Assembly: GCF_030684315.1 (NCBI RefSeq)
Contig: NC_081391.1
Location: 21,102,629 to 21,166,628, forward strand
Source: Stegostoma tigrinum
Lineage: Eukaryota
Direction: 5' to 3'
Length of the DNA: 64,000 nt
Position 1 is the first letter of the stretch. Each line of letters opens with the position of its first letter. Shown piece by piece: positions 156 to 60,700 of the stretch. The position numbers and the translations under genes are program-made. The notes beneath the pieces are model-generated. The model was not told the DNA's origin. It was given only the letters and a program-made list of their open reading frames with translations, and made no database searches.

Positions 156-2539
156 ATGGCTTCCCGAGTGTGTCAGAACTACCACAAGGACTGTGAGGAT
201 GCTGTTAACAAGCAGATCAACCTGGAGCTCTATTCCTCCTATGTTTACCTCTCCATGGTGAGCTTTGTGGAATTGAAGCCTGTGTGATAACAGTGTTGAC
301 CTGTTTGGGGTTTTATGCTGGGTTAATGACTTAGCCGTAGCATGTATTGTTTTCTGTGGCCCTTCCCCTGATGCAATCTCGTGCAAGTCCTAACACTGAC
401 TCTCTGTTCAGGTTTTGAACACTGTCTTAATATACAACTGGCTCCTGGGTGTGGATCCCCAGTTGTCCATCTCGAGACAGTGTCGCCCTTGGTGATTGTT
501 TTCATTGAACTCTGGAGGGTTGAGCTGGTTTTGCTGATAAATTTAACTTGGTTATATCCCTTTTTCTTCAGAAAACCTTCCCTGGTAGGACACAAATGTA
601 TCCTTTTGTTTGAACCTTGCCCCATTTGCCAGACTGGCTTATGTTCAAGATCTAAAGTTCCCTTAACTAAAAACAGCAACTGCTGGAAATCAAACAGCAA
701 CAAGAATAGCTAGAAAAGTTCTACAGATCTGCAAGGAATGGTGGAAGAAATCCGGTCAAATTTTGGGTCCACTGACCCTTGCTCAGTGTGTTTTGTGAGC
801 TATGAAAAGTGGCACACACTTGAAATATTAACTCGTGTACAACAAAGCAGTTAGAATTCTGTGTGGAGTGGGTGGTAGGACACTAGGGTTATTCAGGTGG
901 GTGATGGTGATAATGAGGCTGCTGACTGAGATTTCTGGCTGTGTTAATGACTGACTGCATTATTCATAACACTTCATTCAGTTGGACAGGGGTCTAACTG
1001 GTCTCCATGTGCAGAACAGGGATATGTAATGGTTATAGACAGCTGTCCCCTTTGTGCACCATGCCACACTCTATCGCACCATCTTACCGAAACACAGGTG
1101 AGGGATTGCATTTGGCTTTTGTCCTTTTATTTCCAGAAGTCTGGCTAAGTATCTGTTATATGGGTTATAATCCACGGAAGGTGACTTCCTGGCTCTCTAG
1201 TTTTGTCCACTTAAATGTGGAGTCAAGATGGTGACTGGGTTAGTATCTGAGGACAGGCATTGATGTATTTCAGACATTTCCCTTTCTTGCCTCTTTACCC
1301 CTCGACAGGTCTCTTACTTTGACCAGGATGATGTTGCCCTGCGACACTTTGCTGAGTTCTTTAAGGAGCAGTCCCATGAGGAACGGGAACATGCGGAGAA
1401 ACTGATGGCATTCCAGAATAAACGTGGGGGCCGAGTCCTCCTGCAGGACATCAAGGTTGGATTCTGAAGCCTTCTGTTTGCAGCTTGTTGTGAGCAGCTA
1501 CAATCGACTGGTATCTCCATCTATTTAGCTTCAGGATTGAACAAACCCTGAGTGAAGGGGAGGGTGTTCCCCAAAATAGGATTCCCTTTCAGGCAAAAGG
1601 AAATACTTTGTCCTTGTGACTCTTCAGCAGAAGGCAATTGAAATGAACCAGAATAGGGAGTAGATTTTGCTGTGAATGACTCTTTGAGACAAGGTGAGGT
1701 AACAAAGTATGAAAGGGAACTTTTGCAGGTGTGGAAACTAGCAGTGTCCAGCCTTTGTGAATCTAGATGTTTCTGATAACTTGTGACAATTCCAAACACA
1801 ATAGGAAAGCCAGGAATTACTTCCATTGGTACCTATTCTCTGCATGTGAATTCTGAGAATCTACATTCACAGTAGAATGTGTTTAGAAAATTTCTTAATC
1901 CCTCAGTACAAAATCTAGGAGTCTTTCCCAAATTAACATTGGTTTGTAGTACCTCCTACAATGATGAGGGATGACTAACCAGTGTAGACTAATGACTCAA
2001 CTACCTGCTGAATTGTGCTTTCTGTTCCTGCTACCCTCCCTCCAGAAGCCAGAGCAGGATGAGTGGGGCAATGGTCTGGAAGCAATGCAGAGAGCTCTGC
2101 AGATGGAGAAGGATGTGAACCAGAGTCTGCTGGATCTGCACAAACTCTCCTCTGGCCACACGGATCCTCATGTGAGTTTGTAAACTTTCTTCTTGGAAGA
2201 AAGTGGTGTGTTTGTGCACACTCTGGGTGAAAATCCAACTACCTCTCCAGCCTCCTGCAGGCTGTTAAAACAAACTTTCAAATACATCACCTGAGTGGAC
2301 CTCCACATGGTGGTGATCGTCACATCTGTCATGAGAGGTCACTTTCAGACACCTTTTAGATTCCTCTGAATTAATTTTGTCTTGTTTTCCAGCTGTGTGA
2401 CTTCCTGGAGAGGCACTACCTGGATGAGCAAGTGAAGATGATCAAGAAGCTGGGAGATCACATCACCAACCTGAAGAGACTGGGAGCCCCTGCCAATGGC
2501 ACGGGAGAGTACCTGTTTGACAGGCTCACACTCAGCTGA
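156..2539 (+). CDS. Ferritin (M/heavy-B-like) copy 1, intact, 173 aa
   Basis: Exons 156-257, 1309-1455, 2046-2171, 2393-2539, all GT-AG with the vertebrate ferritin intron positions. [34 protein letters not shown]...[12 protein letters not shown]...[13 protein letters not shown]...[17 protein letters not shown]...[10 protein letters not shown]. Confidence 0.93.
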
Positions 2540-3809
2540 ATGGGGTCAATAATGTGTATGTTGTACATGGTGACATAATGCTAGTAACTCGGTTGTGCTG
2601 AGCAAATCAAAATAGTGTTCACCATGGAACTGAGTACTTTGCCTAATTTCACAGCTGCTTCTGGCTCTTGGTATTGCTGTTTGCACATCTGATCATTAAA
2701 TCCTTTTCTGTTACTTCTGATTAACCTTTAATTCAATGCCTGCCCCAGTAGTTTGCTCCTCTTTTGTCGGTACGAATTCAGTCAGCAATCAATGTAGTGG
2801 AAATCCCACAAGTGTTCGGGTTTTTTTGTCAGTACAACACTGTTTACTAGCCAAACAACTTTTCAGGACCAGCTTCTAGTCAATAGGCAGGGGACTGGTC
2901 TCAGTCAAGCTAAGTGTTGGGAACTGAACTGGAGCCCTGCCCTGTGCAATGTTCAGGTCTCATTGGAATAAGCAGCTGCAGGAAATCTCAGGTTTGGCTG
3001 CACCTGGGGGAAGAACTGTTCAGTCCTAGGACCTGAGACACATTATCATCTCCTGACAGATGTTGCCACACCTGTGACTTTTTCTAGCACTTGGAGTCCA
3101 ATGATTTGAGCATACATTCACTTTTCAAACAAGAATATAAAGTAAAAAAAATTTAGCCTGGAAGATGCACTGATCTCTTTAGCAATTGCTTATCTACAAA
3201 GGATACAAGTGGTTTCGCTCCCATTTCCTTTGCTCCTTTATCACTGGTGGAAGGAGTGAGTCTCATGGCTGCCTGTAAGAGAATGAGAAAACTTGTTTTC
3301 ACTTGTCTCAGGCTCTCACGCGTGCACTCGCCAGAGAGAATGACCTGTTAGTCAAGGCAGCAGTGCCCATCTTGGAGCAGGTGTGGCACAACTTCTCAGT
3401 GCTCTGCAACGTAAAGATTACATAGGCTAAGAACACCAGGTGAAAGTAAAGTTAGAACCCAAATACCACGAGGAGAAATCAGCAGTTCCAATCTTTAGCT
3501 CTTTATTTTCAATGAAATCAGCTCTCCTGCTCTCAACTGACCTGCATGTGCCAGCACATGCACTGCTCTGTGCCTGCCTTGTTCCTGATGTTCAGGGGTG
3601 ACAGTCTCCTCTATTAAAAGGATGTGGATGTCTCTGAGCTGACAGCATTTATTATCCATTTCAAATTGCCACAAGGCCAGGTCAGAGGTGCACACATCGC
3701 TGTGCTTGCAGGGTCATATGCAGGCCAGGCTCGGTAAGGATGGGTTTTTGACACTGAATTGAATGCTCCTCATTACCTTCTTAATTCCAGAGCGGTGTCA
3801 GATAGAATC

Positions 3810-58424: not shown

Positions 58425-60700
58425 ATGGTTTCCCAAGTGTGTCAGAACTACCACCAGGACTGTGAGGATGCTGTTAACAAGCAGATCAACCTGGAGCTCT
58501 ATTCCTCCTATGTTTACCTCTCCATGGTGAGCTTTGTGGAATTGAAGCCTGTGCTATGATAGTGTTGACCTGTTTGGTTTTTATGCTGGGTTAATGAATT
58601 AGCTGTAACATGTATTATTTTCTGTGGCCCTTCCCCTGTTGTAATCTAGTGCAGGTCTTATCACTGACTCTCTGTTCAAAACTTGACCACTGTCTTCATG
58701 TCCAACTGGCTCCTGGATGTGGATGCCCAGCTTGCTGTCTCTGGACAATGTAACCCTTGGTGATTTTTTTCATCTAACTCTGGAGGGATGATCTGGTCTT
58801 GGTCAATAATTAATTTTTGTCAAACTTTGGTTGTATTCCTTTTCTTAACAAAAGCTTTTCCTGACACAAATATACTCCTTTTTTCAAACCTTGCCCTATT
58901 CACCGGACTGTCTTGTGCTCAAGATGTCAAGTTCCCTGAACTAAAAGAACAGCTGCTGCTAGACATTAAACACTAACAAAAATAGCTAGAAAAGCTCTAC
59001 AGAGCTGGAAGAAATCCAAGCTCTGGGTCCATTGACCCTTTCTCAGAAGTGGCTTTGAGCTATGCAATGTGAGGAAAGGGGCACATTTTCAGACTATGTA
59101 TGTGTTTTTTTTTCTTTCTCTCTCTAACAAAGCAGTTAAAATTCTGTGGAGTGGGTGGTAGGACACTGCGGTTATTCAGGTGGGTGATAGTGATAATGAG
59201 ACTGCTGACTGAGCTTTCTGGTTGTGTTAATGAACACATGTCCCTTCATTCAGTTGGACAGGGGCCGAACTGGTCTCCACCTCCTGAACAATAGTGTTTC
59301 TAACCTGCAGAGCACGGATGTCTAATGGCTCTAGACAGCTCTCCCCTTCATCATCCATGGAAGGTGACTTCCTGCTTTGTCTGTTTTTTTAACCACTTAA
59401 ATGTGGAATCCAGATGGTGCCCAGGTTAGTTCCAGAGTGAGGAGTGTCATTCATGAATTTCAGACAGTTTCCTTTCAGCCTCTCTTCCCACAGTTCTCTT
59501 ACTTTGACCGGGATGATGTTGCCCTGCATCACTTTGCTGAGTTCTTCAAGGAGCAGTCCCATGAGGAACGGGAACACGCTGAGAAACTGATGGCATTCCA
59601 GAATAAACGTGGAGGTCGAGTCCTCCTGCAGGACATTAAGGTTAGATTCTGAAGCCTTCTGTTTGCAGCTTTTTGTGAGCAGCTACAATCGACTGGTATC
59701 TCCATCTATTTAGCTTTAGCCTTGAACAAATACTGTGTGAAGGGGAGGGTGTTCACCAAAATAGGATTCCTTTAGGTTGAAAGGAAATACTCTGCACTTA
59801 TGAGGGCAATTGAGAGGAACCAGAATAGTGAGTAGATATCAATGTGAATGACTCTCCTTCAGACAGAATGAGGTAACAAAAGCTAAGACAGGAAATTGTT
59901 GCACTGTGGAAAGTAGCAGTGTCCAGCCTTTCTGAATCTGGAAGATGTTTCTAACACCACAATAGTGAAGCCAGGAACTACTTCCATTGGTACCTATTCT
60001 CTACATGTGAATTCTGAGAATCTACATTAACAGTAGAATGTGTTTAGAAAATTTGTTATTCCCTCAGTACAAAATCTAGTTGTTGTCTTCAAATTCAAGT
60101 TGGTTTGCAGTACCTCCCCTACAATGATGAGGGATAACTAACTGATCAGATGTAGACTAATGATACAACTGCCTGCTGAACTGTGCTTTCTGTTCCTGCT
60201 TCCCTCCCTCCAGAAGCCAGAGCAGGATGAGTGGGGCAGTGGTCTGGAGGCAATGCAGAGAGCTCTGCAGATGGAGAAGGATGTGAACCAGAGTCTGCTG
60301 GATCTGCACAAACTCGCCTCTGGCCACACTGACCCTCATGTGAGTTTGTAAACTTTCTTCTTGGAAGAAAGTGGTGTGTTTGTGCACTCTCTGGGTAAAA
60401 ATCCAATTACCTTCTCCCAGCCTCCTGCAGGCTGTTAAAACAAACTTACAAATGCATCACCTCAGTGGACCTCCACCTGGTTGTGATGGTCACATCTGTC
60501 ATGGGGGTCACTTTCAGACACTTTTGATCCTCTGGATTAATTTTCTCTTCCAGCTGTGTGACTTCCTGGAGAGGCAATACTTGGATGAGCAAGTGAAGAT
60601 GATCAAGAAGCTGGGAGATCACATCACCAACCTGAAGAGACTGGGAGCCCCTGACAATGGCATGGGAGAGTACCTGTTTGACAGGCTCACACTCGGCTGA
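58425..60700 (+). CDS. Ferritin copy 9, intact, 173 aa
   Basis: Exons 58425-58526, 59494-59640, 60214-60339, 60554-60700. TATAAATA at 58348. Near-identical to copy 4. Confidence 0.94.

Follow-up and report, generated by a model that had tools for sequence, protein, structure and literature searches.

Introduction

Ferritin genes are expanded in sharks. In the Greenland shark, 155 FTL and 179 FTH1 hits were reported, the ferritin clusters were found to be syntenic with those of the white shark over at least 250 million years, and the largest cluster was ovary-specific by RNA-seq (10.1101/2024.09.09.611499; this and all other papers are cited for the passages available of them). A second paper described extra FTH1b copies in sharks generally, with 59 in the Greenland shark, and proposed a link between the expansion and ferroptosis and polyunsaturated fatty acids (PUFA) (PMC13214024). 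Both genome papers highlight the expansion and one of them ties it to ferroptosis and longevity, while the regulation of the copies is not addressed in the passages available. Here, a tandem ferritin array of this kind was analyzed in Stegostoma tigrinum, in a stretch of 64,000 nucleotides (nt) of contig NC_081391.1 (positions 21,102,629 to 21,166,628, forward strand), referred to as the window. Its mRNAs very likely lack the iron-responsive element (IRE).

The ferritin IRE is a textbook case of translational control. When iron is low, iron regulatory proteins (IRPs) bind the element in the 5' untranslated region (UTR) and translation is blocked (PMC4117605). A preliminary description of the window had named a 5' IRE as the canonical state of vertebrate ferritin mRNAs, and this agrees with Atlantic salmon, in which the H and M mRNAs (all five isoforms) have predicted 5' IREs (PMC4117605). 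In the shark literature, neither IRE nor UTR is mentioned in the available main text of 10.1101/2024.09.09.611499 and PMC13214024, and the IRE is not mentioned in the text, figures aside, of five supplements to the latter. A 2025 Greenland shark preprint mentions ferritin zero times, and nothing on IRE status in sharks was found in PMC3944790 and PMC13701976. No report of IRE-less shark ferritins was found in the literature searched, in which coverage of subscription journals was thin and consisted mostly of listings. Arrays of this kind are thus already published for sharks, and the missing IRE and the minimal leader appear unreported.

Organization of the ferritin array

Six-frame reading and exon-wise BLASTN of the 64-kb window identified nine ferritin copies, arranged head to tail on the + strand between 156 and 60700. 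Six are intact and three (c3, c5, and c8) are broken, which confirms the nine intron-containing copies, six of them intact, of the preliminary description. The copies are as follows.

156..2539, + strand: c1, intact; exons 156-257, 1309-1455, 2046-2171, and 2393-2539; TATA-less promoter type
6169..9101, + strand: c2, intact; exons 6169-6270, 7907-8053, 8581-8706, and 8955-9101; TATA at 6114, initiator A at 6145
13405..15918, + strand: c3, broken; stop in exon 2, exon 3 absent
20327..22605, + strand: c4, intact; TATA at 20250, initiator A at 20284; predicted 43-nt leader
27057..29465, + strand: c5, broken; stop and 1-nt deletion in exon 2; TATA at 26983 and initiator retained
35162..37555, + strand: c6, intact; TATA-less promoter type; chimeric
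41974..44369, + strand: c7, intact; TATA at 41897, initiator A at 41931; reference unit for the alignment of public contigs
48284..49494, + strand: c8, broken; promoter and exon 1 absent, intron-1 acceptor GG instead of AG
58425..60700, + strand: c9, intact; TATA at 58348, initiator A at 58382; within a recent duplicate

Each intact copy has 522 nt of coding sequence in four exons of 102, 147, 126, and 147 nt, encodes 173 amino acids, and is interrupted by phase-0 introns with GT-AG borders (6/6). Stop-to-stop spacing is 5.1-8.1 kb in seven of the eight intervals and 11.2 kb in the interval with an insertion of a CR1-type long interspersed nuclear element (LINE). A paralogous match was found for 94% of the window. 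Array DNA reaches both window edges, each of which matches internal units, as had been noted before.

Absence of an iron-responsive element

The IRE is defined by a C8 bulge, an upper helix of five pairs, and a loop with A15-G16-U17 (PMC8466369). Rfam cmscan searches, run without a positive control, returned 11 matches at E<=10 across the window and 4 and 5 in two upstream scans of 801 nt, none of them an IRE. A strict hairpin scan of both strands of the 64 kb found no canonical IRE and recovered 200 of 200 planted hairpins. A relaxed scan of the + strand, which allowed G8, other closing pairs, one bulge, and one mismatch, gave 24 matches compared to 18-33 in 10 Markov nulls. None of these matches lay less than 400 nt from the eight ATGs or up to 150 nt past the nine stops.

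Individual candidates were rejected. The relaxed matches nearest to any start, at -424 of c3 and c6, have a GAGUCC loop and a fold that is not IRE-like. A possible remnant at 26954 (c5, C-N5-CAGUGC) is stemless and lies upstream of the TATA box, and a near-IRE at 3964 carries one mismatch, has no lower stem, and lies 2.2 kb from an ATG. The bare word C-N5-CAGWGH occurred slightly above chance (87 matches against a mean of 71, reached in 4 of 100 shuffles). Many of its matches recur in duplicated units and none has a strict stem; the excess is attributed to duplication.

The upstream search covered the whole spacer of eight of the nine copies and 155 nt upstream of c1. Because these eight spacers are fully in view, an upstream exon within the unit cannot supply an IRE, and no IRE-bearing exon was found in them. 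The earlier statement, that no hairpin lies between TATA and ATG, therefore holds in a stronger form, for whole spacers and by Rfam, strict, and relaxed scans. On this evidence from the DNA, mRNAs of the array can be expected with high confidence to lack an IRE.

Promoter and leader

TATAAAT was found in five of the eight copies with an exon 1, its first T lying 55 (c2), 74 (c5), and 77 nt (c4, c7, and c9) before the ATG, in line with the distance of about 55-77 nt given previously. An initiator (YYANWYY) with its A 31-34 nt after the first T of TATA occurs in all five TATA copies and in none of the three TATA-less ones, against a background of 6.5%, and backs a short leader; the five copies represent three promoter lineages and are not independent. 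Because of the spacing of TATA and initiator from the ATG, leaders of 24 nt (c2) and 43 nt (c4, c5, c7, and c9) are predicted. By their sequence, c1, c3, and c6, which read TAGAAAC at the TATA position, have lost both elements.

An inverted CCAAT is located at about -145 in seven of eight copies (absent in c5) and an E-box in all eight, and the observed/expected CpG ratio of the promoters is 0.00-0.20. The shared arrangement is exemplified by c7.

41820..41973, + strand: promoter and leader of c7; inverted CCAAT at about -145, E-box at -137, TATA at -77, initiator at -43; IRE-free and CpG-poor

From its motifs, the promoter looks like a tissue-restricted type.

Predicted proteins and selective constraint

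All six intact copies encode the ferroxidase residues E24, E58, E59, H62, E104, and Q138 as well as the nucleation residues E54 and E61, by comparison with the positions given for both functions in salmon M chains (PMC4117605). Because both residue sets are complete, a single subunit should be able to both oxidize and mineralize iron. The active-site positions, the gene structure, and known motifs make M-type/FTH1b the probable label. Cysteines at protein positions 6, 13, and 127, two of them near the N-terminus, are also kept in 6/6 intact copies.

The coding DNA of the intact copies is 93.8-99.0% identical. Pooled dN/dS was 0.23 over 15 non-independent pairs of intact copies, with a range of 0.14-0.95 among pairs. 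Judged by this ratio, the array ferritins are under purifying selection and thus functional constraint.

Mosaic evolution of the array

Introns are 42-100% alike between copies, and the closest partner of a copy switches along the gene. The promoter and intron 1 of c6 are closest to c1, its introns 2 and 3 to c2. Between c1 and c6, one of 32 four-fold sites in exons 3 and 4 differs, compared to about 50% likeness in intron 3 and 71% in the 3' flank (binomial p of about 0.0002 against 0.29). The segment 55566-64000 is 98.2% identical to 17465-25914 and represents a recent duplication. Mosaic introns together with overly similar exons point to unequal crossover within exons and exon homogenization alongside gene death. 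Evolution by birth and death, as initially suggested, was retained for the three broken copies of nine and rejected as a full account, since exons are homogenized and copies are chimeric.

In c3, the site of exon 3 (about 15237-15540) is occupied by an inverted piece of 292 nt, 99.7% like 18257-18548. This source DNA, 3 kb downstream, suggests a template switch during repair.

Related spliced contigs in public runs

Ten presumed-RNA runs from six organisms have 5-7% of words in common with the array. Four of these were aligned to the c7 unit, and the low shares (0.05-0.07) of the other six were left out of account. Single contigs span all four exons at about 97% identity in three of the four aligned runs (three organisms), and intron 3 is skipped at GT..AG in all four. 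Two contigs, each from a different study and organism, reach 28 and 22 nt upstream of the ATG; no other contig contributes to the depth of that bin, and their ends are a weak hint of a start near -43. Zero contig cover upstream of -28 and in the introns rests on the contigs listed and was not counted as absence. A second, more diverged ferritin aligns to exon 2 in the same runs. It is consistent with a separate H-type gene, by residues typical of that type.

Conserved non-coding blocks and other elements

The last ~100 nt of intron 2 form the best-conserved non-coding block of the unit, with a conservation of 0.87-0.97 in six divergent pairs compared to about 0.5-0.8 at the other five intron ends.

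8487..8580, + strand: C/D-box-like block in intron 2 of c2; begins sharply at a perfect box C, with D'/C'/D-like words
1961, 22029, 28886, 36942, 43784, 48886, and 60124, + strand: box C at the intron-2 end of seven other copies

RUGAUGA and CUGA occur in all eight copies with an intact intron-2 end and D' in six of them. The best Rfam score was 31.4 bits, for an archaeal-type model with a gathering score of 45. No conserved terminal stem was found in the flanks of the block, and the intron-2 word had 0 matches in metagenome contigs. The D box lies 38 nt before the exon, where a branch point could lie. An orphan C/D small RNA amplified along with each copy is a doubtful interpretation of these words; a small nucleolar RNA is no more plausible than a splicing element, an enhancer element, or a conversion tract.

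A second conserved block follows the stop codon.

44370..44470, + strand: 3' block of c7; conserved, IRE-free

ATTAAA occurs at +69 to +73 in eight of nine copies, and a 3' UTR of about 90 nt is predicted. Matches of the block to SNORD21 and mir-463 were far under the gathering scores and were rejected. In the consensus fold of the 3' UTR, two-sided change was found in one of 27 pairs, and no structure is claimed. A 17-nt word ~225 nt past the stop (e.g., 9293-9309) is invariant in 9/9 copies, with diverged flanks and downstream of the predicted poly(A) site.

The LINE sits between c8 and c9, inside the otherwise 98%-identical duplicate.

51052..55570, + strand: CR1-type LINE, near full-length; esterase open reading frame (ORF) 1, endonuclease, reverse transcriptase; ORF2 frameshifted

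It has a 3' tail of short repeats and a duplicated 5' segment, and ~70%-identical 3' fragments lie in four other spacers. The element is a passenger of the array. No tRNA genes were found in the window.

Discussion

The explanation we favor, by a modest degree, is that the array is a transcription-controlled bulk supply of ferritin, probably ovarian, that escapes IRP feedback. A CpG-poor CCAAT/TATA/initiator promoter would drive each gene, the mRNA would begin with an IRE-free leader of 24-43 nt, and output would be set by transcription and copy number rather than by IRP1/2. An IRE-bearing ferritin should be self-limiting, as more ferritin leaves less free iron, which activates the IRPs and blocks its own translation. 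Loss of the IRE would remove this brake, so that extra copies could give extra protein ahead of the iron supply. The likeliest use would be to supply ovary or oocytes in bulk with a self-sufficient ferritin, each subunit of which would combine oxidation with nucleation; there it may serve as a maternal iron store or oxidant buffer. Ordinary iron-regulated storage would be left to a separate, more diverged ferritin. Unequal crossover would add, fuse, and delete copies, with conversion and purifying selection keeping the exons alike. Start sites, expression and its tissue, IRP independence, and the feedback argument are inferred from the DNA sequence, and the ovary bias is taken by analogy from another species. 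The dosage-amplified family free of iron control that had been proposed initially is partly supported, by the missing IRE, the short leader, and the functional constraint; the array itself is of a kind already published for sharks.

Several observations weigh against this explanation. Two of the six intact copies (c1 and c6) have neither TATA nor initiator and hence no predicted start. A donor-like GTGAGT lies 79-99 nt before the ATG in four of eight copies, all three TATA-less ones among them.

57-62, 6090-6095, 13306-13311, and 35063-35068, + strand: GTGAGT donor word; perfect splice-donor match

A short 5' UTR intron starting from this site is possible. An IRE created by splicing from GTGAGT was also considered and rejected, as none formed at the tested junctions in 4/4 copies. 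The pair c7-c9 has a dN/dS of 0.95, from few changes. No RNA-recorded run is listed as containing array DNA, which is evidence neither way, and no array transcript was seen. The related contigs do not reveal where transcription begins, their ends may be breaks at branches, and they could derive from processed copies in DNA; the listed contig of one run begins inside the coding region, and another run has none on exon 1. In all four aligned runs, the contigs leave the array sequence at 44358-44362, just before the stop. Because of this divergence, they are assigned to sister genes with another C-terminus and 3' UTR, not to array copies. Every array copy ends at codon 173, and one loose-end consensus of the related contigs (two contigs, agreement 0.73) reads three residues further, making the array proteins of 173 amino acids three residues shorter than a related contig suggests. 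The array may thus have a lineage-specific short C-terminus and a new 3' UTR. Finally, some of the FTH1b copies of the Greenland shark show expression in fin and blood (PMC13214024), which makes ovary exclusivity doubtful.

This last point leads to the best-surviving alternative, which we consider unlikely, namely that the IRE-free array is a constitutive or stress-induced somatic buffer against oxidants and ferroptosis, in lipid-rich tissues or blood, and not mainly an ovarian store. It would fit the ferroptosis/PUFA link and the fin and blood expression of PMC13214024, the 14 tandem fthl27 copies of the hadal snailfish, which lower reactive oxygen species (ROS) in cells (PMC10746142), and the spliced contigs found here in runs without a tissue label, whereas the ovary-specific expression of the largest Greenland shark cluster (10.1101/2024.09.09.611499) speaks for the ovary. 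Stress induction also finds little in the promoters: by consensus words, the 200 nt upstream contain no match to the antioxidant response element in 8/8 copies and a word like the metal response element in one of eight.

Slightly less plausible still is that the IRE was lost early in this lineage for unrelated reasons and that the array mostly reflects turnover by recombination, with few copies of importance and the IRE loss causally unconnected to dosage. The three broken copies, the two intact ones lacking TATA and initiator, and the fast turnover seen in the chimeras and the 98% recent duplication all suit this account. Conversion from a few functional copies could mimic a low dN/dS, and leaders also seem short in the sister genes of other species. 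What argues against it is that the promoter, the 3' block, and the active-site residues are conserved between old lineages with introns no more than 42-70% alike, and that clusters were reported to be syntenic for at least 250 million years (10.1101/2024.09.09.611499).

Hidden iron regulation is improbable, whether by a non-canonical IRP site, by an IRE in a far-off first exon beyond the unit, or by some other mechanism. In its favor, all salmon M-chain mRNAs have predicted IREs (PMC4117605), the upstream DNA of c1 lies mostly beyond the window, and start sites are predictions. Against it, whole spacers of eight of the nine copies are IRE-free even by relaxed rules, and the related contigs stay collinear with the array over the 19 nt preceding the ATG, a stretch that includes the nearest AGs able to act as acceptors.

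If the genes are IRE-free, copy number could convert directly to protein, and an ovarian store could be told apart from a role in ferroptosis. A more general proposition is somewhat less likely than not: sharks keep a multi-copy, intron-containing, catalytically complete ferritin without an IRE and with a minimal TATA/initiator leader, in which escape from IRP feedback made amplification pay, supplying the oocyte with bulk ferritin independently of iron. It would be a natural case in which dosage amplification depended on the loss of negative feedback. The surprise is limited, as the array kind is known and IRE-less ferritins exist elsewhere.

Comparison with known ferritin systems

Like the published shark FTH1b clusters, the array consists of tandem multi-exon ferritin copies, of which some are 5'-truncated in the clusters and three of nine are broken here. 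Exon homogenization and chimeras were found here and not in the available passages of those papers. With teleost M ferritin (salmon M1-M3), the array shares four exons and three introns and the same ferroxidase and nucleation positions, whereas the salmon M mRNAs have a predicted 5' IRE and the array copies do not (PMC4117605). The snailfish fthl27 cluster likewise arose by tandem amplification of ferritin in a fish and was interpreted as an increase in dosage, but is recent and expressed in most tissues, and the IRE is mentioned zero times in the available text (PMC10746142).

Snail yolk ferritin and mammalian FTHL17, which is retro-derived, are likewise not known to carry an IRE. Mitochondrial ferritin (FTMT) also lacks an IRE and is intronless and mitochondrial (PMC13010531), and Schistosoma ferritin mRNAs are without IREs according to the title of a reference. 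Across animals, ovaries and eggs are rich in ferritin (PMC1488847). Unlike FTMT and FTHL17, the array genes keep all three introns and the full active site, which argues that the IRE was lost from an intact gene and not by retroposition.

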